A stretch of 64,000 nucleotides of DNA, taken from NCBI GenBank assembly GCA_964550405.1, contig CAZJZD010000012.1, positions 754 through 64,753 on the forward strand. Direction: 5' to 3'. Shown here one piece after another: positions 3,855 to 40,442 of the stretch (the stretch's first letter is position 1; every line of letters begins with the position of its first letter). Source of the DNA: an uncultured Hydrogenophaga sp. Lineage in GTDB: Bacteria > Pseudomonadota > Gammaproteobacteria > Burkholderiales > Burkholderiaceae_C. The notes beneath the pieces were generated by a model that did not search any database, was not told the origin of the DNA, and saw only the letters and a list, made by a program, of their open reading frames with translations. A program made the translations under genes and the position numbers.

Positions 3855-5057
3855 ATGATCGCCGCCACCCCCCTGCCCGATTTCCGCAGCCCCGTCTTTC
3901 TGCGCGCGCACATCGAAGACACGCTGGGCTTCTACCTGCCGCGTGCCCTCGACCCCAGCGGGGGCCTGTTCCACTTTCTGCGCGACAACGGCAGCGTCTA
4001 TGACGCCCACACGCGCCATCTGGTCAGCAGCACACGGTATGTGGTGGCGCTGTCCATGGCAGCGCGGCGCGGGCTGGGTGGCGAACAGGTGTGCCGCGCG
4101 CTGCAGCAGGCCTTCGACTTCCTGCCGGTGCACCGAAACCCCGAGACCGGCGGCTACGCCTGGCTGCTCGACTGGCGGGACGGCCAGGCTCGCGTGCTCG
4201 ACGGCACCAACCACGCCTACGGCCTGGCCTTCGTGCTGCTGGCGCACGCGCACGCCCACATGGCCGGCGTGGCCGGCGCCCACGCCGGCATCGCGCAGAC
4301 CTACGAGCTGCTGGAGCAGCGCTTCTGGGAGCCGCAGCATGGCCTCTACGCCGACGAGGCCACCGCCGACTGGCAACTGCGCCCCTACCGGGGCCAGAAC
4401 GCCAACATGCACCTGTGCGAAGCCCTGCTGGCCGCCTTCGACGCTACGCAGGAGGCCCGCTACCTGGACCGCGCCGCCCTGCTGGCCGAGCACATCACGG
4501 TGCGGCAGGCGGCATTGGCCGATGGCCTGGTCTGGGAGCACTACCGCGCCGACTGGTCGGTCGACTGGGACTACAACAAGGACGACAAGACCAACATCTT
4601 CCGGCCCTGGGGCTTCCAGCCCGGTCACCTGACCGAGTGGACCAAGCTGCTGCTGCAGCTGCACGAACGCCGGCCCGATGCGGCCCTGGTCGGCCGCGCC
4701 CGGCATTTCTTCGACACCGCCATGCACAAGGCCTGGGACGGCGAGCACGGCGGCCTGTACTACGGCTTCGCGCCGGACGGCAGCATCTGCGACAGCGACA
4801 AGTACTTCTGGGTCCAGGCCGAGTCGCTGGCAGCCGCCGCGCGGCTGGCCTCCGTCACCGGCGAGCCGCGCTACTGGGCCGCCTACGACCACCTCTGGGC
4901 CTATTCATGGCGCCACTTCGTGGACCACGAACACGGCGCCTGGTGGCGCATCCTGACCGCCGACAACCGCAAGTACTCGGACGAAAAAAGCCCGGCCGGA
5001 AAAGTGGACTACCACACCATGGGCGCGGCCCACGATGTGCTGGATGTACTTGGGTAG
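3855..5057 (+). CDS. AGE-family epimerase/isomerase (D-mannose isomerase/YihS-like)
   Basis: RHLVSSTRY, YRGQNANMHLCEA, FQPGHLTEW, KYFWVQAE, GKVDYHTMGA; ATG at 3855. Confidence 0.88.
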   Translation: MIAATPLPDFRSPVFLRAHIEDTLGFYLPRALDPSGGLFHFLRDNGSVYDAHTRHLVSSTRYVVALSMAARRGLGGEQVCRALQQAFDFLPVHRNPETGGYAWLLDWRDGQARVLDGTNHAYGLAFVLLAHAHAHMAGVAGAHAGIAQTYELLEQRFWEPQHGLYADEATADWQLRPYRGQNANMHLCEALLAAFDATQEARYLDRAALLAEHITVRQAALADGLVWEHYRADWSVDWDYNKDDKTNIFRPWGFQPGHLTEWTKLLLQLHERRPDAALVGRARHFFDTAMHKAWDGEHGGLYYGFAPDGSICDSDKYFWVQAESLAAAARLASVTGEPRYWAAYDHLWAYSWRHFVDHEHGAWWRILTADNRKYSDEKSPAGKVDYHTMGAAHDVLDVLG

Positions 5058-5061
5058 CCGA

Positions 5062-6042
5062 TCAGTGAACGCCGGGTGTTCCGGGTGGCTGTGAAGCCGC
5101 CTGCAGGAACACCTGCGCAGCATCAACCGGATCGAAGTGGTACTGGGCACCACAGAAATCGCAGCCCACTTCCACCTGGCCCTGCTCGGCGATGATGGAC
5201 TCGACCTCCTCCCGTCCCAGCGACTTGAGCATGCCACTGACGCGCTCGCGCGAGCAGGTGCAGGCAAAGCGCGGGCCGTCGGCGCCGGTCTGCGGCTCGA
5301 AGCGGCGCACGTCCTCTTCCCAGAACAGACGGTGCAGGATGGTCTCGGCGTCCAGCGTCAGCAGCTCCTCGCGCTTCAGACTCGCGGCCAGGATGGCGAT
5401 GCGGTTGTAGTCCTCGTTGCGGCCGATCTGGTCTTCGTCGCGCGCCATGGCGCCCGCACCGGACAGGTTGGATTCGCCCTGCAACGGCAGGCGCTGGATC
5501 AACAGACCGGCGGCCACCTGGTCATTCGCAGCCAGCACCAGGCGTGTGTCCAGCTGCTCGCTCTGCAGCATGTAGTGCTCGATCACCTCGCTGAGCTTCT
5601 CCAGCTTCTCGTGCCGGTCGCCGAACAGCGGTACCACGCCCTGGTAGGGCTGCTGGCCCGGCAGACGGTCCTTGGGGTCAAGCGTGATGGCGCAGCGGCC
5701 GTGGTTGTTCACGTTGACCATGTGCGAGAGCGGCGCATCGGCTGCGACCTCGCCCTGCACGTTGGCCGTGGCGCGCAGGGCCAGGTCGGGTTGCACCTCG
5801 GCCACGGCCAGCTTCACCGGACCGTCGCCCTGCACCTGCAGGATCAGCGCACCGTTGAACTTGATGTTGGCCTGCATCAGCGTGGCGGCGGCCGTCATTT
5901 CGCCCAGCAGTTCGGTCACGGCCGCCGGGTAGCCGCCGGCCTGCTGGCGACGGCGCAGGATTTCCTGCCAGCTGTCGGTCAGGCGCACCAGCATGCCGCG
6001 CACGGGCAGGCCTTCAAACAGGAATTTGTGGAGTTCGGACAC
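5062..6042 (-). CDS. hslO: Hsp33 redox-regulated chaperone
   Basis: LQVQGDGPVKL, YMLQSEQL, CTCSRE and CDFCG zinc motif. Confidence 0.95.
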   Translation of the reverse strand: MSELHKFLFEGLPVRGMLVRLTDSWQEILRRRQQAGGYPAAVTELLGEMTAAATLMQANIKFNGALILQVQGDGPVKLAVAEVQPDLALRATANVQGEVAADAPLSHMVNVNNHGRCAITLDPKDRLPGQQPYQGVVPLFGDRHEKLEKLSEVIEHYMLQSEQLDTRLVLAANDQVAAGLLIQRLPLQGESNLSGAGAMARDEDQIGRNEDYNRIAILAASLKREELLTLDAETILHRLFWEEDVRRFEPQTGADGPRFACTCSRERVSGMLKSLGREEVESIIAEQGQVEVGCDFCGAQYHFDPVDAAQVFLQAASQPPGTPGVH

Positions 6043-21942: not shown

Positions 21943-23057
21943 GACCGCATGATAGGCGCGCCTGTCGCAGCGGGCGCAACGCTCTGCAACAGCGCCCAGG
22001 TCACCTGTTCGCGCACCACTGGGTCCGGGTGCCCGGCCTGTGCCGACAGGGCGGCGCGCATCGCCGGATCGTCCCGCTGCCGCAACGCATTGCCCATAGC
22101 CAGTGCGAGGTTGCGCTGCCAGCGCGCGTGGCCGATGCGGCGGATGGGGCTGCCTTCGGTGCGGCGCAGAAACTCGTCCTCGGTCCACGCGAACAGTTCC
22201 ACCAGCGTGGCGCCGGTCAGCCCTTCGCGCGGGTCGAAGTCGGGCAGCGGGCTGCGCTGCGCAAATTTGTTCCAGGGGCAGGCGAGCTGGCAGTCGTCAC
22301 AACCGTAGATGCGGTTGCCGATCAGCGGGCGCAGCTCATCGGGAATCGGACCGGCGTGTTCGATGGTGAGGTAAGAGATGCAACGGCGTGCGTCGAGCCG
22401 GTGGGGTGCGACGATGGCCTGGGTGGGGCAGACCTCGATGCAGGCGCTGCAGGCGCCGCAATGCTCGGTGACGGGTTCGCTCGCGGGCAGCGCCAGGCCC
22501 ACATAGATCTCGCCCAGGAAGAACATGGACCCGCCCTCGCGGTTCAGGACAAGCGTGTGCTTGCCACGCCAGCCCTGGCCACTGCGCCGGGCCAGTTCGG
22601 CTTCGAGCACCGGCGCGGAATCGGTGAACACGCGATGGCCGAAGGGCCCCACCTCGGTCGCGATGCGCTCGGCCAGCTTCTGCAGCCGGCTGCGCAGCAC
22701 CTTGTGGTAGTCCCGCCCGCGGGCATAGACCGAGACGATGGCCTCGCCTGGCCGCTGCAGGCGTTGCTGCTCGGTGTCGGTCCAGCCGTCCGGTGTGTTC
22801 CGCGGCAGGTAGTCGAGCCGCGCGGTGATGACGCTGACCGTGCCCGGCACCAGCTCGGCCGGCCGCGCGCGCCGCAGGCCGTGGCTTTCCATGTAACCCA
22901 TGCCCCCATGGAACCCGGCGGCCAGCCAGGCCTGCAAGCCGGCCTCGGCATCGGACAGGTCCACCCCGGTCACGCCGATTTGGGAGAATCCCAGCTCCCG
23001 GCCCCAGGCCTGAACCTTGTCCAGCAGTTGAGCAGCATCGAATCCGGTGGTCGTCAT
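21909..23057 (-). CDS. queG: Epoxyqueuosine reductase
   Basis: YARGRDYHKVLR, FTDSAPVLE, CGACSACIEVCP and GCDDCQLACPWN Fe-S motifs. Confidence 0.95.
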   Translation of the reverse strand: MTTTGFDAAQLLDKVQAWGRELGFSQIGVTGVDLSDAEAGLQAWLAAGFHGGMGYMESHGLRRARPAELVPGTVSVITARLDYLPRNTPDGWTDTEQQRLQRPGEAIVSVYARGRDYHKVLRSRLQKLAERIATEVGPFGHRVFTDSAPVLEAELARRSGQGWRGKHTLVLNREGGSMFFLGEIYVGLALPASEPVTEHCGACSACIEVCPTQAIVAPHRLDARRCISYLTIEHAGPIPDELRPLIGNRIYGCDDCQLACPWNKFAQRSPLPDFDPREGLTGATLVELFAWTEDEFLRRTEGSPIRRIGHARWQRNLALAMGNALRQRDDPAMRAALSAQAGHPDPVVREQVTWALLQSVAPAATGAPIMRSCIPRKPLSTP

Positions 23058-23066
23058 GACCCGCGC

Positions 23067-23609
23067 ATTGTAGGAACGCCCCCCGGCGACGGCGGGCTGG
23101 TCTGGCGTGGCCGCTGGGACGACGAGGCCGCCACGGCCGCTTTCGCCCAGCGCCTGGCCGCCTGCCCGGCCATCGCCCACGCCACGCTGACGTTGCAGGG
23201 CGACCTGGGTGCCGGCAAGACCACGTTTGTGCGGCACCTGCTGCGCGCGCTGGGCGTGCGCGGGCGCATCAAGAGCCCCACCTACGCGGTCGTGGAACCG
23301 CACAGCGCCATCGACTGCCCGCTGATGCCGCCGGGCGAGCCGCTGTCCATCTGGCACTTTGACTTCTACCGTTTCAGCGACCCGCGCGAATGGGAAGACG
23401 CGGGTTTCCGGGAACTGTTCGCCAGTCCGGGCCTCAAGCTGGTGGAGTGGCCCGAGCGGGCCGCCGGCGTCATGCCCGCGGCGGACGCCGAACTGCTCAT
23501 CGAACCCGATCCCATGCAAACCGATCCCGAGCACGACGACAGGCGTCTGCTGCGCCTGACCGCTTTCACCCCCGCAGGACGGCAGCTGGTGGCCGCGCTC
23601 GGCGCATGA
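23067..23609 (+). CDS. tsaE: t6A biosynthesis ATPase TsaE (start uncertain)
   Basis: LQGDLGAGKTTFVR, IKSPTYAVVE, WHFDFYRF, LVEWPE; between queG and amidase. Confidence 0.9.
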   Translation: MVGTPPGDGGLVWRGRWDDEAATAAFAQRLAACPAIAHATLTLQGDLGAGKTTFVRHLLRALGVRGRIKSPTYAVVEPHSAIDCPLMPPGEPLSIWHFDFYRFSDPREWEDAGFRELFASPGLKLVEWPERAAGVMPAADAELLIEPDPMQTDPEHDDRRLLRLTAFTPAGRQLVAALGA

Positions 23610-25090
23610 GCGGCAACACCCGTCACGCCCGCCGACGGCTGCTGCAGGCGGGCTCGCTGGTGCTGCTGCTGGGCGTTCAGCACCTGGCGCGAGGCGCCAG
23701 CGTGGTGGCGGTGCGCATCTGGCCGGCGCAGGACTACACCCGCATCACGATCGAATCGGACGGTGCGCTCAAGGTTCACACCGTCACGTCCGACGCCACC
23801 CGGCTGGCGCTGGACATCGAAGGCATCGACCTGCTGCCCGGCCTGCGCGAACTGGTGGGGCAGCTCAAGAGCAGCGACCCCAACATCGCGGCCATCCGCG
23901 TGGCCCAGGGCAAGGGCGAGCTGGTGCGCCTGAGCGTGGACCTCAAGCAGGCCGTCAAGCCGCAGGTTTTCCACCTGCTGCCGGTGGCGGCCTACCAGCA
24001 CCGCCTGGTGCTGGACCTGTACCCGGCCCAGGAGATCGACCCGCTGGAGCAGCTGGTGGCCCAGCGACTGAAGGAACTGGACGCCGCCAGCGCGCGTGCG
24101 GCCCGTCTGCTGGGCCACGAACTGGACGTGGCCGAGAGCGCGCCCCACCCGCTGAACCCCACGCTCCCCGACGCACGGGACCCGCTGGGGGAGCTGATCG
24201 CACAGCGGGAACGGGAACGCAGGCCCCCGGGGGCCCCGCGCGCGCCGGCCGGCCCCACCGGTGCCGATCCCACGGTCACGGCCAGCACACCATCACCCAA
24301 GGGAGACCGCGCCGGGGTGGGCGCCACCGTCAGCCCCGGCACGGGCAGCGGCAAGGCCGGCGCCACCGAGCGGCTGATCATCGTGGCGCTCGACCCCGGG
24401 CACGGCGGCGAAGATCCGGGCGCCATCGGCCCGGCCGGCACCTACGAAAAACACGTGGTGCTGAGCATCGCGCACAAGCTGCGCGAGCGCATCAACGCCA
24501 CCCGCATCAAGGGCAACCCCATGCGCGCCTTCATGACGCGCGATGCCGACTTCTTCGTGCCGCTGGGCACACGGGTGAGCAAGGCCCAGCGCGTCAAGGC
24601 CGACCTGTTCATCAGCATCCATGCCGATGCCTTCATGAGCCCGCAACCGGCCGGCGCCAGCGTGTTCGCCCTCAGCACCCGGGGCGCCAGCAGCGCCACC
24701 GCGCGCTGGATGGCCAACAAGGAAAACGCGGCCGACCTGGTGGGCGGCATCAATGTGAAAACCAGGGACGCCACCGTGCAGCGTGCCCTGCTGGACATGA
24801 GCACCACCGCCCAGATCAAGGACAGCCTCAAGCTGGGCAGCGCGATGCTGGGCGAGGTCGGGCGCGTGGGCAAGCTGCACAAGCCGCGCGTGGAGCAGGC
24901 CGGGTTCGCGGTGCTCAAGGCGCCGGACATCCCCAGTGTGCTGGTGGAAACCGGCTTCATCAGCAACCCCGGCGAAGAGCAGCGCCTGCGCGACGAGGCC
25001 TACCAGGACCAGCTGGCCGACGCCCTGATGCGCGGCATCGTCAAGTACTTCAGCGCCAACCCGCCACTGGCGCGCAACCGGTCGATGTGA
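23606..25090 (+). CDS. amiC: N-acetylmuramoyl-L-alanine amidase (AmiC-like) with AMIN domain
   Basis: Tat-like RRRLLQ signal, VRIWPAQDYTRITIE, LDPGHGGEDPGAIG, FISIHAD, VLVETGFISN. Confidence 0.9.
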   Translation: MSGNTRHARRRLLQAGSLVLLLGVQHLARGASVVAVRIWPAQDYTRITIESDGALKVHTVTSDATRLALDIEGIDLLPGLRELVGQLKSSDPNIAAIRVAQGKGELVRLSVDLKQAVKPQVFHLLPVAAYQHRLVLDLYPAQEIDPLEQLVAQRLKELDAASARAARLLGHELDVAESAPHPLNPTLPDARDPLGELIAQRERERRPPGAPRAPAGPTGADPTVTASTPSPKGDRAGVGATVSPGTGSGKAGATERLIIVALDPGHGGEDPGAIGPAGTYEKHVVLSIAHKLRERINATRIKGNPMRAFMTRDADFFVPLGTRVSKAQRVKADLFISIHADAFMSPQPAGASVFALSTRGASSATARWMANKENAADLVGGINVKTRDATVQRALLDMSTTAQIKDSLKLGSAMLGEVGRVGKLHKPRVEQAGFAVLKAPDIPSVLVETGFISNPGEEQRLRDEAYQDQLADALMRGIVKYFSANPPLARNRSM

Positions 25091-25186
25091 ACAGGTCACA
25101 ATTTTCTATCGCCTGCGAAATGGTCAGCACAACAGGTCATCACCATTCAGGCCACTTGTGATGCGTGTGTCCCCGCAGGCACCTGG

Positions 25187-26068
25187 ATGTACCCAGCCGC
25201 AATTGCCGGACAACCCTGGGATACCCGCCGCATCACGCTTGCAGGTCCCTCCGACACCATCATAGGCTTCTTCAACGGGGTGGCGAATACGGAAGAGGCT
25301 GCCCAGAAAAGTCTTGATCGACTTGAAGTTGAGTACGGCCCTCAATACAAAGACACCCCACTCAGGTACGCCCAGTTCTACAACCAGACCGCCTGCGAGG
25401 GAGGCTTTTGCCTGGAGGACATGGCCGAAACCTTCGAGCAGCGCAGCATGGCGCTCAACGGTATGTTCGCTAACCGTTGGGAAACCTTCTGGGAAATTCT
25501 GACGGGCCGGCATCAGCAAGACACATCGCTCACAGGGCGCCTGCTCAACCTGCTGGGCAACGGCAGCAATGCGCTGCTGCAGTGGCTGGACACCACCGCC
25601 ACCGCCGTGCTCAACCAGTTGGTGAACAACACCCTGCGCCTGATGACCTACTTCAGCAACTCGCCCACCGCAGCGGACAGGGCCGACCACAATACCCGGC
25701 TGTGGCGATACGCGGACGATGGCAACCAGTTGCTGTTGGTCGCCCATTCCCAGGGCAACCCGTTCGTCAACAGCGCCTACGACGCACTCATGCGGTTCAA
25801 ACCCGAAGCAAAGGCCCGGGTGGTGCATGTCGCCCCTGCGGCACCGACCCTGCGCGGAGACCATGTGTTAGCAGACATCGACCTCGTGATCAATGCTCTA
25901 CGGGGCACCGGCCTCAGCAGCGTTCCCGATGTCAACATCCATCTGCCCCTGAGCAAGATCGACCCCTCCGGCCACAGCTTCGAACCCACCTACCTCGACA
26001 AATCCCGTGCCGCCTACGCGCGCACCCGAGGCATGATCACCAGCAGCCTGGACACACTCACGCGATGA
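25187..26068 (+). CDS. Alpha/beta-hydrolase (lipase-like), possibly 5' truncated
   Basis: IIGFFNGV, LLLVAHSQGN nucleophile elbow, late GHSF His candidate; frame is open from 25091. Confidence 0.6.
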   Translation: MYPAAIAGQPWDTRRITLAGPSDTIIGFFNGVANTEEAAQKSLDRLEVEYGPQYKDTPLRYAQFYNQTACEGGFCLEDMAETFEQRSMALNGMFANRWETFWEILTGRHQQDTSLTGRLLNLLGNGSNALLQWLDTTATAVLNQLVNNTLRLMTYFSNSPTAADRADHNTRLWRYADDGNQLLLVAHSQGNPFVNSAYDALMRFKPEAKARVVHVAPAAPTLRGDHVLADIDLVINALRGTGLSSVPDVNIHLPLSKIDPSGHSFEPTYLDKSRAAYARTRGMITSSLDTLTR

Positions 26069-26082
26069 AAGGGAACAGCGAC

Positions 26083-26628
26083 ATGAACACATCTCAAAAA
26101 GTACTCACCCTTTCGCTGGCGGTCGCAGCGCTCACCGCTTGCGGCGGCAGCGATAAGCCAACGCCCCCCGCCCCGACAGCGGACACTTCCCAAAATCTGG
26201 GTGCGCAGATTCAGGCGCTGGAGGCCAGCGGCCAACTGCCCAAACTGGACCGTTCCACCGACATCAAAGGCCCAGACACTGACAACAACGGCATCCGAGA
26301 CGACATCGATGCTTGGATCGCCGCTCAGCCCATCACTGATCCCCAGAAAAAAGCGGCGCAACAAATGGCCAGAGTCCAGCAGGCAGCTTTGGTTGCGGAT
26401 CTGAGCGACAAGTCCACCTTGCAGATTCTCGGGGATAGATCGATGGCAGCAGTGAAGTGCCTTCGACAGTCGTTCATGCCCGATTACCAAAAAGGATATG
26501 ACTTGGTTGATCAAATCGAAGCGAAAACGGCCAACACCAAAGAGCGCACCAAACAGTACATTGCCTACAACCGCGCTGCGTCGGGCAGTGTCACAGAGCT
26601 TGCGCCGGGCAACAACTGCGAGCCGTGA
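26083..26628 (+). CDS. Lipoprotein, paralog 1 of DxDNNGIRDD family (putative immunity)
   Basis: LTACGG lipobox; LDRSTDIKGPDTDNNGIRDDIDAWI; alternative ATG at 26065. Confidence 0.7.
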   Translation: MNTSQKVLTLSLAVAALTACGGSDKPTPPAPTADTSQNLGAQIQALEASGQLPKLDRSTDIKGPDTDNNGIRDDIDAWIAAQPITDPQKKAAQQMARVQQAALVADLSDKSTLQILGDRSMAAVKCLRQSFMPDYQKGYDLVDQIEAKTANTKERTKQYIAYNRAASGSVTELAPGNNCEP

Positions 26629-27179
26629 ACGCCGTCCCAACCATCCGCTCACACATGCGCTTGTTGCTCAGCGGCTGCCTTCTGCTTTCCGCCTGCGGCG
26701 GCAGCGACAAGTCTGCAATATCGTCAATTGCTGCAGTTCCGTCCAGCGTGGCCGCTCAGATCCAATCCTTGGAAAGCAGCGGCCAGGTCCCCAAGCTGGA
26801 CAGCTCTACGGACATCGAGGGCCCCGACACCGACAACAACGGCATCCGCGACGACATCGACGCCTGGATCGCCGCTCAGCCCATCCCCGACACTCAAAAG
26901 AAGGCGGCGCAGCAGATGGCCCGTGTCCATCAAGCAAAAATACTGGTCGATCTCAATGAAAAAGCTGCATTGCAGGCTTTGGGAGAACGATCGGCTGCTG
27001 GCGTTGTTTGTCTTGGCGACGTATTTATGCCTGACCGCCAAAAAGGCCGTGACTTGAGAGCCCAACTCGAAGGCATGATGGCCAACACAAAGGAGCGTGC
27101 CAAGCAATACATAGCCTACAACCGTGCCGTGTCAGGCTCATCAGGTCGCGTCCCCGAGGGAAACACCTGCGAGCCATGA
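26625..27179 (+). CDS. Lipoprotein, paralog 2 (putative immunity)
   Basis: LSACGG lipobox; LDSSTDIEGPDTDNNGIRDDIDAWI; GTGA overlap with paralog 1. Confidence 0.7.
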   Translation: MNAVPTIRSHMRLLLSGCLLLSACGGSDKSAISSIAAVPSSVAAQIQSLESSGQVPKLDSSTDIEGPDTDNNGIRDDIDAWIAAQPIPDTQKKAAQQMARVHQAKILVDLNEKAALQALGERSAAGVVCLGDVFMPDRQKGRDLRAQLEGMMANTKERAKQYIAYNRAVSGSSGRVPEGNTCEP

Positions 27180-27211
27180 CCCGTACAAGCTGAACGCAGA
27201 GAACTGCATTC

Positions 27212-27949
27212 ATGAGGTTGTCCGTCAAGGTTGCTGGCTGGTTCATCTTCGCCAATATGGCCATGATGTCCGCACCAGGGGCTGTTGTCGTCACCCTGGG
27301 CTTATGGCCTTTGCGGCCTTGGCTGCCACCCATGGCCCATGACGGCGGGTTCAACCTCACCGTGTTGGCTGGCTATCTATGGCCCATCGGTATGCCTTTC
27401 GTGGTCTGGGCGCTGGATCGCTGGAAACCACGATGGGGCACATGGGTGTACCGTGGATCAGTGGCCCTTGCCTTGTACGTCTGGGCCATTCTGGTGACGC
27501 TGCTCACGCTGCTGATGGTGGCGGATTGGGTGCCGATGACCACGGCATCCGGACAGCGGCTGCAACTCGACCATTCCAGTGACATCAAAGGCCCCGACGC
27601 CGACAACAACGGCATCCGCGACGACATCGATGCCTGGATCGCTGCACAACCCATTACCGATGAGCAGAAGAAGGCGGCTTGTCAAATGGCCAGAGCCCAG
27701 CAAGCCACGCTGATGGCGGACCTTACGGACAAAGCCGCATTGGATCAATTGGGCGACAGGACCATGCGTGGCGTGGACTGTCTAGCTGATCGCTTTGAGC
27801 CAGACTATCAAACAGGCTTGGACCTGAGCGCAAAGATCGAAGCTATCACAGCCAACACCATCGAGCGCGCCAAACAATACAACGCCTACAACCGGTCGAG
27901 TTCTGGGGGCTCAGGCAGACTTCCGAAGGGCGACAACTGCGAACCGTGA
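27212..27949 (+). CDS. Membrane-anchored paralog 3 (putative immunity)
   Basis: About three N-terminal TM helices fused to LDHSSDIKGPDADNNGIRDDIDAWI domain ending in NCEP. Confidence 0.65.
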   Translation: MRLSVKVAGWFIFANMAMMSAPGAVVVTLGLWPLRPWLPPMAHDGGFNLTVLAGYLWPIGMPFVVWALDRWKPRWGTWVYRGSVALALYVWAILVTLLTLLMVADWVPMTTASGQRLQLDHSSDIKGPDADNNGIRDDIDAWIAAQPITDEQKKAACQMARAQQATLMADLTDKAALDQLGDRTMRGVDCLADRFEPDYQTGLDLSAKIEAITANTIERAKQYNAYNRSSSGGSGRLPKGDNCEP

Positions 27950-28603
27950 TCAGACCGCGTCGACCTTGGCGTTGCGCTGGTGGCGCCAGGCGCCGAAGAT
28001 GGCGATCAGCCCCGGCACGATGATCAGTGCCCAGATGATCTTGGAGAGGTTGGCCTGCACCCAGGGCAGATTGCCGAAGAAGTAGCCGGCCGCCGTAAGG
28101 CCGATCACCCAGATCACAGCACCCACCACGTTGTAGGCGGTGAACTTGCTGCGGGTCATCTCGGCCACCCCCGCCACGAAGGGCGCGAAGGTGCGGATGA
28201 AGGGCATGAAGCGCGCGATGATGATGGTCACGCCACCGTAACGCTCGTAGAAGTTGTGCGCCTGGTTGAAAGCGTTCTTGTTGAAGAAACGCGAGTTCTC
28301 CCATTGGAACACCTTGGGCCCGAAATAGCGGCCGATGGTGTAGTTGCACTGGTCGCCCAGGATGGCGGCCACCAGCATCAGGCCAGCCGCGAGGGACCAG
28401 TCCATCAGCCCGGCGCCGCACAGCGCTCCGACGATGAACAGCAGCGAATCCCCCGGCAGGAAGGGCATGACCACCACGCCGGTTTCCACGAAGATGATCA
28501 GGAACAGCAGGGCATAGACCCAGGCGCCGTAGGCCTGCACAAAGGCCTGCAGGTGTTTGTCAACGTGCAGGATGAAGTCGATCAAGAAGGCAATGAGTTC
28601 CAT
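27950..28603 (-). CDS. dedA: DedA family membrane protein
   Basis: IIFVETG...PFLPGDSLLF, ARFMPFIRTFAPFVAG. Confidence 0.93.
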   Translation of the reverse strand: MELIAFLIDFILHVDKHLQAFVQAYGAWVYALLFLIIFVETGVVVMPFLPGDSLLFIVGALCGAGLMDWSLAAGLMLVAAILGDQCNYTIGRYFGPKVFQWENSRFFNKNAFNQAHNFYERYGGVTIIIARFMPFIRTFAPFVAGVAEMTRSKFTAYNVVGAVIWVIGLTAAGYFFGNLPWVQANLSKIIWALIIVPGLIAIFGAWRHQRNAKVDAV

Positions 28604-36778: not shown

Positions 36779-36884
36779 TGGGGATTTTTCGTTCAGCAGC
36801 GGTTGTTACAAACCGAAACTCAGCAAAAAGTACCCATTCAACTGCCTCCAGCAGTGCTTTTGACCCTGTTTTTTCGTGCCAAAC

Positions 36885-39800
36885 ATGATCATCGTCCACC
36901 GCCTGTTCAATCATCCCGTTGTCCGCACAGCCTTGGTGTTGACGCTTGGATCAGTCGCCATCTCAGCCCTGCCCCAGCACAGCCTCACGCCAGGCCAGTT
37001 CGCCGTGAACGATGCCGGAGCAGCAACCTACGGCATCCCCATCTCGGTCGCTCCAGGGGTGGGAGGGTTGAGCCCTAAGCTGACACTGCAGTACAGCTCA
37101 CAGGCGCCCAACGGTGTCTTTGGGGTGGGCTGGACGCTGTCTGGCGTTTCTTCCATCACGCGTTGTGCCAAGACAACGGCCGAAGACGGCGACCGGGTCG
37201 GCGTGCAGAACAACGCCACAGACCTGTTCTGCCTGGATGGGCAAAAACTGCGAGTGGTCAACGGACTTGCATATGGGGCGGCGGGCGCCCAGTACCGTAC
37301 CTCCATCGACACCTATGGACGCATTACGTCTCAGGGCAATGTGGCCGGTGGTCCGCAGTACTTCACGCTGGAGGCCAAGACAGGCGAGATCTACACCTTC
37401 GGCGGAACTGATGCCAGTCGCCTGGAGCACCCCAGCAAGGGCGTGGTTCGCACATGGATGGTCAGCGAGATCAAGGATCGCTACAACAACCGCATCAGCT
37501 TCTCATACAGCAAGAACCTCACACTGGGGGAGCAATTGCTGACCAGCGTTGACTACAGCAACGGCCGTGTCCAGCTGGACTACGAGGCTCGTCCCGAGAA
37601 CGACAGAATCCTCAAATTCGACGACGGGGTTGAATACGGTTCCACCAACTCCAGGGTCAGTGCCATCACCGTGGCGCACTCACCCGTGATCAGCGGTTCG
37701 CCCACGATCACCACTTTCAAGACCTACCAGCTGCAATACACGCAAAGCCAGGCCAGCCAGCGCAGCATGCTCAGGTCGATCAAGGAATGCGCTCCGGATG
37801 GCTCTTGTTTGCCAGCCACCACGCTGAACTATCGGGATGGCGTGCCGGGCTCATTCCGTGACGTGGGTGCAGCACCTGCCATTTCGACTCCCAACGGACT
37901 GCGGGACACCGAGGGCAATGGAAAGCAGTCTGTCTACAACTTTCGGACGCCGCCCTACTACGAAGACGTAGCGCTTTGGGATGTTGATGGCGATGGACGA
38001 ACGGATTTGTTGACTAAAAAGTTGCAACTCAACGAACAATCAACACCGACGCAGGAAATTATTGAGTACGCCAATGGCACAAAAACCTCCCGCACCTGGG
38101 ACTATCAGAACCATATACGGTGTTTTGCGGATATCAATGGCGATGGGATCAGCGAGAGCATTCGATTTGTCTCAAAATTTGTAGGCGGATCCAATTCTGG
38201 CACCACGGTTTATTCGGTCTCTGAGACTTTTGGAAACACCAGCATCCTCTTGGGTAACAACGTTCCTGTTTCATGTCACTCTATTGATATTGACGGAGAT
38301 GGACGCGCCGAAGTTTTTGTGAGCATGTATAGCGGGAGCCCAATTAACCTGACACACAAAAACGGGGCATTCTCGACCTTACCATATACACCTGAATTCA
38401 ACTACACATCAATCAAATTCGGCGACTTCAACGGAGACGGAAAGACGGACACGGTTCGCAGCTCCTCATTCGCCGGCCCCGCTGCATCGACATATTTATC
38501 CTCGGGCTCTGGCCTGAACGGACGCACCGCTTGGTCAACGGCCGTCGGTGGAATTGCATGTACTGGGGATTTTAATGGTGATGGCCGCACAGACATCCTG
38601 GGCGGTCGCAACCAGTTATTTCTATCCAATGGCAGCTCGGCGACCATCGTGAGCCAAAATGTCGTCTCCTACACCGGAAGCTTCTCCAGCAACATATGTG
38701 GAGACTTCAATGGTGATGGCTTGATGGATATCGTTTCTGGTCAACGCTATTGGTACAACCAGTTGCCAGCAGATGTGGATCGATTGGAGGCCGTTGACAA
38801 TGGGGCTGGGTTTATCCAGCGTGTGGAGTACAAGCCCATCACCGACAACAGCGTCTATACGAAGGGCGTCGGTGCGGCCTACCCTCAGACAGAAATGCAG
38901 ACCCCGATCATCGTGGTCAGCCGAGTGCAGTCGGGGAATGACTCGCAAAAGTGGCAGAACACCAGCTACCGCTACGCCGCCTTGCGGGCGGATCTGAGGC
39001 GCAGTGGCACCCAGGGTTTTGAGCGGGTGACATCCGTCAACGAAGGCACTGGCGTCAGTGTCGCCACACACTATCACCAGAACTTCCCTCTCACCGGTCT
39101 TCGCTCACGGATGCACAAGTATGTGGGTAGCGAGATCGCTCCGCATTCCTTGGAAGACACCACCTTTGGCTACATGACCCGTACGCTGGCGGCATTGCCT
39201 GCGCATCAGGCCGCGCAGGTGCATCTCAATCAGATCACGACAACGTTTTATGACCTCAAGCAACTCGGGGTCAAAACCGGCACCCTCAAGGAAAGCACCG
39301 AAGAATTCGATTCATTTGGTTTCCCGACAACCCAGAAGACGGAGCGACTTGACGGCAATGGTGTTCTGACCAGTTCAACCCAGCAAAGCCACACGTACAG
39401 CCATCAAGAGGCGACTTGGTTGCTTGGTCAGTTGACCAGGACCACCACCGCGGCGCAAAACCATCGAACCTTGCCCGCCACCGCCCCGCCGCCCTCGCCT
39501 TTGACGGTTCAGCTCAATACCACCGAGGTAGTCGCCAATCCAACGGGGCCGGGGCTCTGGAGCGGTACGCTCTCTGTCACGGCACAAGGCGCGACGCCAC
39601 CCTACTCCTACGCTTGGACGCGCATGACTGGCAACCGCACCGCCTTCTCAAACGCCGGAGTTGCGAGCCCGACGATATCGGCCACACTCGCCGCAGGTGA
39701 GGAGTTCGAAGAGACTTTGCGGGTGACGGTCACGGATGCCAACGGGGTTTCAGACTCCCGCGAGGTTGTTGTTCGCTACGTCACGCCGTTCCCATTCACG

Positions 39801-40421
39801 TCAACGATCACCGCGAACACCTCCAACTACAACCTGCGTGCGGCTGCAGTCGCTGCGGGATGGAACCAGACATCGCAGTTGCGAGCGGTGGTCACCATCA
39901 ACGCGGGTGTGATGGTCTCGGCCAATACCGTGAGCGCCTACGCTTTTGACACCGGTGCAGGCTTCCCGGCGGGCAGCACCCTTGCACTGATCAACAACGG
40001 CTCCATCATCGGCATGGGAGGAGCCGGCGGAGCGGGCGGGATGTTCGGAGCCCAGGGCGCGCCAGGTCAAGCTGGGGGGCCTGCCCTGAGAGCGCAGTCA
40101 CCTTTGGTCCTGACGAACAACGGAACCATCGCATCCGGTGGCAATGGTGGTGCTGGCGGAGCAGGATGGACCAGATCGACGAGCAGAGCTGACATGTATA
40201 TGTCGGGAGCGAGGGGAGGCGGAGGCCGTTCCGGAGCGACCAACTCTGCGGGGGGGAACCCGGGCACCGCTGCAGCACCCGGAGCAGCCTCTTCACCCAC
40301 TGGGGCCCCAGCCTCTGCTACAAGCCAACCCGGCGGCCAATACGGCGGGGGTGCTGCGGTAGTGGGCAATGGCAACGTCGAGTGGCAAACCACCGGCTCG
40401 CGCCTGGGCGCGCTGAACTGA
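36885..40421 (+). CDS. TcB-like RHS N-terminal half: signal peptide, SpvB, FG-GAP propeller, midN-like region, Ig-like domain and Gly-rich gp38-like adhesin domain
   Basis: GAATYGIPISVAPGVGGLSPKLTLQYSS..NGVFGVGW; six D(F/I/V)(N/D)GDG repeats; PPYSYAW..VTVTDANG; INNGSIIGMGGAGG..GGAAVVGNGNVEW; alternative GTG at 36876. Confidence 0.8.
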   Translation: MIIVHRLFNHPVVRTALVLTLGSVAISALPQHSLTPGQFAVNDAGAATYGIPISVAPGVGGLSPKLTLQYSSQAPNGVFGVGWTLSGVSSITRCAKTTAEDGDRVGVQNNATDLFCLDGQKLRVVNGLAYGAAGAQYRTSIDTYGRITSQGNVAGGPQYFTLEAKTGEIYTFGGTDASRLEHPSKGVVRTWMVSEIKDRYNNRISFSYSKNLTLGEQLLTSVDYSNGRVQLDYEARPENDRILKFDDGVEYGSTNSRVSAITVAHSPVISGSPTITTFKTYQLQYTQSQASQRSMLRSIKECAPDGSCLPATTLNYRDGVPGSFRDVGAAPAISTPNGLRDTEGNGKQSVYNFRTPPYYEDVALWDVDGDGRTDLLTKKLQLNEQSTPTQEIIEYANGTKTSRTWDYQNHIRCFADINGDGISESIRFVSKFVGGSNSGTTVYSVSETFGNTSILLGNNVPVSCHSIDIDGDGRAEVFVSMYSGSPINLTHKNGAFSTLPYTPEFNYTSIKFGDFNGDGKTDTVRSSSFAGPAASTYLSSGSGLNGRTAWSTAVGGIACTGDFNGDGRTDILGGRNQLFLSNGSSATIVSQNVVSYTGSFSSNICGDFNGDGLMDIVSGQRYWYNQLPADVDRLEAVDNGAGFIQRVEYKPITDNSVYTKGVGAAYPQTEMQTPIIVVSRVQSGNDSQKWQNTSYRYAALRADLRRSGTQGFERVTSVNEGTGVSVATHYHQNFPLTGLRSRMHKYVGSEIAPHSLEDTTFGYMTRTLAALPAHQAAQVHLNQITTTFYDLKQLGVKTGTLKESTEEFDSFGFPTTQKTERLDGNGVLTSSTQQSHTYSHQEATWLLGQLTRTTTAAQNHRTLPATAPPPSPLTVQLNTTEVVANPTGPGLWSGTLSVTAQGATPPYSYAWTRMTGNRTAFSNAGVASPTISATLAAGEEFEETLRVTVTDANGVSDSREVVVRYVTPFPFTSTITANTSNYNLRAAAVAAGWNQTSQLRAVVTINAGVMVSANTVSAYAFDTGAGFPAGSTLALINNGSIIGMGGAGGAGGMFGAQGAPGQAGGPALRAQSPLVLTNNGTIASGGNGGAGGAGWTRSTSRADMYMSGARGGGGRSGATNSAGGNPGTAAAPGAASSPTGAPASATSQPGGQYGGGAAVVGNGNVEWQTTGSRLGALN

Positions 40422-40442
40422 ACTGGATCCTCTGAGGCAGAC

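Follow-up and report, generated by a model that had tools for sequence, protein, structure and literature searches.

Introduction

Type VI secretion system (T6SS) effectors that are phospholipases, the Tle proteins (Tle1-Tle5), are paired with Tli immunity proteins, as was reportedly described by Russell and co-workers in 2013. Tli3 is a lipoprotein (PMC9860674), and a T6SS lipase can depend on its Tli for activation (bioRxiv 10.1101/2023.03.28.534661). Here we analyze a block of four plus-strand open reading frames (ORFs) at positions 25091-27949 of a 64,000-nt stretch of contig CAZJZD010000012.1 from an uncultured Hydrogenophaga sp. (hereafter the window), which fills the gap between amiC and dedA and consists of a hydrolase frame followed by three tandem paralogs, here called partners. 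The locus resembles the Tle/Tli systems in that a serine hydrolase with a GxSxG-type elbow lies beside one or more genes for periplasmic lipoproteins, and in having tandem paralogs and orphan copies of the putative immunity gene. It differs from them in the Sec signal of the hydrolase, in the lack of T6SS linkage and of a sequence-family match, in a hypervariable N-terminal domain (N-domain) where Tle proteins depend on VgrG, PAAR or an adaptor, and in a predicted partner fold that has no match among solved structures.

Polymorphic toxin loci with orphan cassettes include those for contact-dependent inhibition (CDI; cdiA-CT/cdiI), the Rhs loci and Neisseria MafB/MafI; MafB carries a Sec signal and its outward route is unknown. 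As in these loci, 5′-truncated fragments of the putative toxin gene alternate with putative immunity genes, the latter outlast the former, and both lie in sporadic islands of low GC content. The full-length hydrolase homologs also share the Sec signal of MafB. The polarity is opposite, however: conservation lies in the catalytic domain here and variation in the N-terminal one, and Rhs, CdiA or MafB repeats and domains are absent.

Secreted enzymes with a dedicated helper form a further comparison: lipases with the foldase Lif, Acinetobacter CpaA with its chaperone CpaB, and Serratia PhlA with its inhibitor PhlB. The locus is similar in placing a Sec-exported hydrolase beside an overlapping gene for a membrane-anchored, predicted helical periplasmic partner. 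Unlike the Lif pairs, it shows no match to the Pfam family Lipase_chap, and it occurs with diverged multi-copy arrays, with intact orphans and with repeated decay of the hydrolase while the partner is kept. The predicted fold of the hydrolase shares a small sheet, an Ala-His-Ser-x-Gly elbow and the Ser-Asp-His order with minimal alpha/beta hydrolases such as Bacillus subtilis lipase A (AHSMG elbow), the fungal cutinases and the N-domain of PlaB, from which it differs by a helical insert of approximately 100 aa and by the absence of any sequence-level relationship.

On the evidence presented below, we propose, with a probability of roughly 0.6, that positions 25091-27949 form a small, horizontally acquired island that carries a Sec-exported module of the toxin/immunity type, built from two undescribed families, in which the toxin has been disabled and the immunity kept.

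The Hydrolase Gene Has Lost Its 5′ End

The hydrolase frame is open from 25091 to 26068 on the plus strand, but its earliest ATG, GTG or TTG codon lies at 25187 and opens a product of 293 aa, from whose first ATG all hydrolase residues are numbered here. The initial annotation had begun the block at 25091 and missed a truncation that becomes apparent by comparison with a near-identical relative, the metagenomic contig L001, which shares the tsaE-amiC context and matches the window at 99.25% identity over 2.8 kb. At the site of the island, L001 encodes a hydrolase ORF of 624 aa. Window positions 22305-25101 correspond to L001 1-2797, and the window from 25106 onward to L001 from 3782 onward (94.3% identity; blastn and alignment); the 984 bp in between (L001 2798-3781) are missing from the window. 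Missing with them are the gene's upstream region, its start codon, a signal-peptide-like segment (…VLFVMTLVFGPFTKHAFA) and an N-domain of approximately 300 residues. As the deletion took the start codon, the signal peptide and the N-domain, the enzyme is predicted to be no longer exportable. As called, most homologs of the 293-aa product are 410-510 aa long; the complete open frames of L001 and of L002, another homolog locus, measure 624 and 582 aa, respectively. The catalytic core is whole in the window, with every family-invariant residue kept. The host genome (99.98% complete) contains this truncated hydrolase as its single copy, no intact hydrolase elsewhere, and only the three partners of the island. 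Judged from these alignments, the hydrolase of the window is a 5′-truncated remnant of a longer exported enzyme.

The frame can run back to the amiC stop codon because positions 25106-25186 still code for internal residues of the N-domain, and the apparent abutment on that stop arises because the remnant happens to share the frame of amiC, probably a one-in-three coincidence of the deletion. The earlier description of a block abutting the stop codons of both neighbors therefore holds on the dedA side, where the dedA stop (27950-27952) touches that of paralog 3 (27947-27949), while on the amiC side it applies to the remnant frame only. Likewise, the translational coupling ascribed to the four genes is matched at the first two junctions by overlaps of stop and start codons (ATGA at 26065-26068 between hydrolase and paralog 1, GTGA at 26625-26628 between paralogs 1 and 2) but not at the last, as paralog 3 starts 32 nt downstream of paralog 2.

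A single stop codon, the TGA of amiC, separates amiC from the in-frame remnant, whose first ATG is preceded by 32 sense codons. Visual inspection of AmiC shows a twin-arginine-type signal (RRRLLQAG), and read-through of the TGA would yield an exported AmiC-hydrolase fusion.

Divergence between the window and L001 is unevenly distributed. The synonymous divergence (dS) is four-fold higher in the island (0.13) than in amiC (0.03), and identity amounts to 94.3% over positions 25106-26304 versus 99.25% in the flank, which suggests that the island was exchanged by recombination or evolves faster. The ratio of nonsynonymous to synonymous divergence (dN/dS) of the hydrolase remnant against L001 is 0.29.

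Partners Persist Where the Hydrolase Is Broken or Absent

To place the locus among its relatives, we searched one genome per GTDB species with a profile of the partner, which gave 160 confirmed stretches. Seventy-nine of these loci were fetched and their six-frame ORFs scanned with hidden Markov models of the hydrolase and the partner. An intact hydrolase lies within 300 bp of the partner in 56 of the 79 loci, as expected from the pairing for which a neighborhood survey of the family had initially been suggested. Only hydrolase fragments were found in six loci and no hydrolase in 12 loci that have at least 3 kb of flank on both sides; five, with a contig end nearby, were left undetermined. Conversely, each of nine loci found with the hydrolase as seed has an adjacent partner, and among 301 genomes surveyed from the family to which the window belongs, all seven with a strong hydrolase match have a partner beside the hydrolase. 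One genome of 99% completeness (G210) encodes two partners and no hydrolase anywhere. The linkage is therefore asymmetric: the hydrolase was never seen without a partner, and the partner sometimes stands alone.

Homologs without a hydrolase neighbor had been named in the initial annotation as an outcome that would speak against the pairing, and they do occur, in approximately 15% of the loci. In the orphan partners, the signal or lipobox is preserved along with the acidic loop and the C-terminal cysteine. They are intact, as orphan immunity genes would be, and these loci therefore do not refute the pairing.

The window is one of several loci in which the hydrolase is inactivated next to an intact partner. 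Elsewhere the lesions are an internal deletion with a frameshift (L016, 6348-8122), a frameshift just past the GFFNGV motif in a complete Xylophilus genome (L095, 3234-4846) and an insertion sequence (IS) with a DDE transposase inserted in the hydrolase gene (L098, 2653-5272); L024 and L035 retain only small hydrolase remnants, again with intact partners. Arrays hold up to five partners. The array of L002 consists of a full hydrolase, a partner, a truncated hydrolase copy of 251 aa (4472-5227) and four more partners, and further 5′-truncated hydrolase cassettes lie between partner genes in L094 (6065-6181) and L025 (7657-7915). The genomic features of a toxin/immunity module were thus found together, namely a putative toxin never without its putative immunity gene, orphans, arrays, truncated cassettes and a sporadic island.

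Two arrangements can be distinguished. In type A, found in Comamonadaceae and including the window, a hydrolase with signal peptide, variable N-domain and core is followed by one to five partners. In type B, a single lipoprotein gene overlaps the start of a hydrolase in which the core follows a signal peptide and precedes a C-terminal domain of approximately 130 aa; it was found in Acinetobacter, Moraxella, Marinobacter, Pigmentiphaga, Cupriavidus, Vibrionaceae, Sphingomonas and others. Carriage is sporadic, as approximately seven of the 301 family genomes have the hydrolase; a survey of 400 genomes of the class returned two weak matches, too sparse to add anything. Insertion sites differ as well: in the window the island lies between amiC and dedA, and in L002, L004 and L016 it is found downstream of a gene for a Mg-chelatase, which we read as comM. 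From its distribution and its sites across these sequences, the island is mobile and sporadic. On a Shewanella contig (L096, 5971-7179), a partner-hydrolase pair lies approximately 650 bp from a phage-type integrase gene.

The Core of the Hydrolase Is Conserved and Its N-Terminal Domain Hypervariable

An AlphaFold2 (AF2) model of the core (mean predicted local distance difference test score, pLDDT, 83.6; predicted template modeling score 0.75) shows strands and helices in the order typical of a minimal alpha/beta hydrolase, with a helical insert of approximately 100 aa at residues 76-177. Central sheet, nucleophile elbow and Ser-Asp-His order are all present in the model. A Foldseek search against the Protein Data Bank (PDB) gave weak best matches (E 0.03-0.3, template modeling scores 0.2-0.4) to the Legionella phospholipase PlaB, cutinases, B. 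subtilis lipase A and a class-3 lipase. Across 91 hydrolase sequences, N66, D78, E81, R86, H187-S188-Q189-G190, H214, D232, G262-H263 and Y269 are invariant, which fits a predicted Ser188-Asp232-His263 triad.

Full-length homologs bear Sec-type signal peptides by inspection. Their N-domains have diverged far more than their cores: between L001 (2871-3860) and L002 (2154-3005) the N-domain is 29% identical and the core 94%, and the corresponding values are 26 and 93% for L013 and L017, and 34 and 92% for L026 and L034. Throughout the type A loci with cores of 92-94% identity, N-domains are 26-34% identical or cannot be aligned, and no Pfam family matches the domain. This hypervariability is the pattern expected of a targeting or receptor-binding module, which the N-domain probably is.

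Searches of Pfam and NCBIfam gave no meaningful match for the four proteins of the window or for eight full-length homologs. PDB sequence searches with single sequences and with profiles were empty for both hydrolase and partner, and a literature search on the motifs of the two proteins returned nothing relevant. The name "YfaP family" that NCBI gives to a Shewanella homolog was not reproduced with Pfam or NCBIfam.

The Partners Are Anchored Proteins With a Calcium-Like Loop

The initial description of an AHSQG hydrolase ORF followed by three tandem paralogs is correct, with the AHSQG motif at residues 186-190. The paralogs are 57-63% identical to each other, with repeat spacings of 551 and 770 nt. 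As that description also stated, they share an acidic loop (given there as DxDNNGIRDD), two cysteines and near-identical DNA across the motif. The loop, D[TA]DNNGIRDDID, is present in all three; DNA identity reaches 0.89-0.96 across it and 0.5-0.6 elsewhere, with longest exact runs of 17-31 nt. The pattern D-x-D-x-N-G-x-R-D-D-x-D is near-invariant among 74 partner sequences, and neither cysteine (positions of paralog 1 in Table 1) varies in 74 homologs. The sequence of the loop agrees with the DxDxDGxxDxxD pattern of calcium loops of the EF-hand or thrombospondin-type-3-like kind; it has no Pfam match and only moderate pLDDT, and Ca binding is regarded as putative. An invariant pair of cysteines in an exported protein suggests a disulfide.

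Paralogs 1 and 2 and most homologs have a lipobox of the form [LVI][ASTVI][GAS]C, LTAC and LSAC, respectively, in the window. Paralog 3 lacks it and has instead a hydrophobic anchor with its strongest segment at approximately residues 82-110. In an AF2 model of the partner (pLDDT 74.5), a disordered linker after the lipobox leads through the acidic loop to a bundle of approximately five helices; Foldseek found no structural match to this model in the PDB.

Paralog 1, orthologous to the partner directly after the hydrolase in L002 (84% identity, dN/dS 0.22), probably represents the cognate partner in the window. The ortholog of paralog 3 is the anchored form of 245 aa found last in the L002 array (78% identity, dN/dS 0.26). 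The three paralogs are old duplicates, with dS above 1.7 in every pair, and each is under purifying selection: dN/dS is 0.14-0.24 within the set and 0.08-0.26 in comparisons with the partners of L002.

Proposed Function and Rival Explanations

In the module as proposed, the intact hydrolase would leave the cytoplasm through Sec by means of its signal peptide, and its hypervariable N-domain would direct it to a target, where the Ser-Asp-His core, of lipase/esterase type, would hydrolyze an ester substrate of the envelope, most plausibly a membrane lipid. The partner, tethered to the membrane by a lipid or a hydrophobic anchor, would bind the core in the periplasm and block the enzyme, and so protect the producer as well as any cell with a matching partner. 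In the present strain the 984-bp deletion would have disabled the hydrolase, and the three partners would most likely represent retained immunity against the hydrolases of neighbors. The window would then be a clear natural example of the loss of a toxin with retention of immunity, for which a near-isogenic intact relative exists in L001. Two widespread unannotated families would gain a function, as a hydrolase toxin and a lipoprotein immunity protein, with at least 160 loci among representatives of GTDB species that range from Comamonadaceae to Acinetobacter, Moraxella, Marinobacter, Vibrionaceae and Sulfuricurvum. A system of antagonism built on general Sec export, in place of a contractile or contact-dependent machine, would be added to those described, and with it the question how the enzyme exits the producer and enters its target. 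A wider generalization is more tentative, and we think it somewhat more likely to fail than to hold: that the loci constitute a T6SS-independent class of interbacterial weapons across Proteobacteria, a Sec-exported, bacteriocin-like lipase or esterase whose N-domain selects the target, with arrays of Ca-binding lipoproteins as immunity, and that many genomes, including the host, are "disarmed but immune" cheaters.

Several points weigh against the toxin/immunity proposal. Toxicity of the hydrolase is a prediction from sequence; no homology to a characterized toxin or immunity protein emerged from the Pfam, NCBIfam and PDB sequence searches, and the Foldseek matches reach only E 0.03-0.3 for the hydrolase, with nothing for the partner. 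The analysis revealed no path by which the hydrolase would cross the outer membrane or enter a target cell, its signal peptides were called by eye and hydropathy rather than with a dedicated predictor, and some of the frameshifts in metagenome-assembled genomes may be assembly errors. Furthermore, type B is the commonest arrangement, with 41 of the 56 intact loci having only an upstream partner and no array, and a hydrolase exported by Sec, whose translationally coupled partner is helical and anchored in a membrane, also resembles a lipase/foldase or enzyme/inhibitor pair.

This last resemblance leads to the most serious competitor, in which a secreted lipase or esterase is served by a dedicated periplasmic helper (a steric chaperone, foldase or transit inhibitor similar to Lif, CpaB or PhlB), antagonism plays no part and the window holds a dead operon. 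Export of the hydrolase, the anchored, periplasmic and, in the model, all-helical partner, the overlap of the two genes and the dominance of one partner per hydrolase across Proteobacteria are all in keeping with it, and even a T6SS Tli can be required for the activity of its lipase, as cited above. We nevertheless consider it rather unlikely. The partner matches neither Lif (Lipase_chap) nor any other Pfam family, arrays of two to five long-diverged partners are each maintained by purifying selection, and partners remain intact where the hydrolase is absent or broken, where a client-specific chaperone would be useless; truncated hydrolase cassettes within arrays and a hypervariable N-domain are equally at odds with a helper. 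A Tle-type lipase with Tli immunity, fired by one of the T6SS of the host, would agree with the GxSxG-like elbow and the periplasmic lipoprotein neighbors, and the host genome does contain two loci for the T6SS sheath (TssC/VipB), at C4:27728-28636 and C14:79610-80518, neither of them on the contig of the window. Every hydrolase examined has a lipoprotein partner beside it, as an adjacent periplasmic immunity gene would require, with a putative role in neutralization. Against this stand the Sec signal peptides of the full-length homologs, the absence of T6SS-marker Pfam domains from the 120 best hydrolase homologs, and the lack of vgrG, hcp or PAAR genes near the island in the window (where the initial annotation had likewise seen no VgrG, PAAR or other delivery gene adjacent) and in the gene tables of 11 homolog loci, whose neighbors are housekeeping genes, an integrase or an IS. 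Neither Pfam nor NCBIfam gave a match to a Tle family (DUF2235, Lipase_3, DUF3274, Tle4-type or PLD) for the window protein and eight full-length homologs. Given the Sec signals, the missing marker domains and the housekeeping surroundings, assignment to T6SS Tle/Tli is not supported and is very improbable; the analogy is limited to the logic of a lipase with periplasmic lipoprotein immunity. The initial idea of a lipase effector with duplicated periplasmic immunity genes thus survives in the tight linkage, the arrays, the orphans and the decay of the hydrolase, but not in the T6SS delivery it implied.

A different possibility accepts the truncation and holds that the gene is still expressed and functional, either as a cytoplasmic core from ATG 25187 or as a read-through fusion exported by the AmiC signal, so that the partners serve a resident enzyme. 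The intact core with all invariant residues speaks for it, as do the frame shared with amiC across a single TGA and 32 sense codons, an AGG 7 nt before ATG 25187 and the dN/dS of 0.29. A promoter and terminator scan, uninformative overall, showed no terminator-like site between amiC and the ORF but no promoter-like site on the plus strand either. Frame sharing, however, arises by accident in one of three deletions, a dN/dS measured over so recent a split mostly reflects history before the deletion, and the inactivations that arose independently in other lineages suggest that the hydrolase is usually lost. We judge continued function improbable and retain the proposal of a disabled toxin with preserved immunity.

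Layout of the Island and Neighboring Genes

The features of the island and its flanks are listed in Table 1. The G + C content at third codon positions (GC3) is 0.67-0.77 in the four island ORFs and 0.90-0.91 in amiC, dedA and mutL; on this contrast the block is compositionally foreign, an island bounded exactly by two native genes. No att-like direct repeats were found flanking it, and the ORFs listed in its surroundings in the window include no apparent integrase or transposase. An empty amiC-dedA site was sought in a genome of the same genus (G169), where synteny downstream of amiC is not conserved and no clean empty site was seen.

Table 1. Features of the amiC-dedA interval and its flanks, in window coordinates.
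Feature	Position	Strand	Evidence or remarks
amiC (N-acetylmuramoyl-L-alanine amidase), native left flank	23606..25090	+	L001 ortholog with AMIN and Amidase_3 Pfam domains; GC3 0.91
amiC stop codon TGA	25088-25090	+	same reading frame as hydrolase remnant
Deletion junction	25102..25105	+	blastn and alignment against L001
Residual coding sequence of the lost N-domain, PAKWSAQQVITIQATCDACVPAGTW, no start codon	25106..25186	+	corresponds to internal residues in P0005 and in the 624-aa protein of L001
Hydrolase catalytic core, 293 aa from first ATG, no signal peptide or N-domain	25187..26068	+	invariant residues, AF2 model
GFFNGV motif of hydrolase	25265-25282	+	
AHSQG motif of hydrolase, aa 186-190	25742-25756	+	
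Paralog 1, lipoprotein	26065..26628	+	lipobox LTAC 26131-26142; Ca-like loop 26275-26310; Cys132/Cys185
Paralog 2, lipoprotein	26625..27179	+	lipobox LSAC 26685-26696; Ca-like loop 26826-26861; alternative start ATG 26655
Paralog 3, 245 aa, last island gene	27212..27949	+	N-terminal hydrophobic anchor of ~120 aa and partner domain; Ca-like loop 27596-27631
dedA, native right flank, convergent with island	27950..28603	-	GC3 0.90

Further along the window, positions 36876-43970 encode an ORF of 1181 aa with SpvB, FG-GAP and TcdB_toxin_midN domains and one of 1175 aa with RHS repeats, by their look a TcB/TcC-like or Rhs toxin pair. This pair is unrelated to the island, from which it is separated by mutL, gdhA, a gene for an MFS transporter and miaA. 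Positions 45917-48193 encode a secretin (Secretin, Secretin_N and STN domains) with N-terminal TPR repeats and a C-terminal cohesin-like domain.

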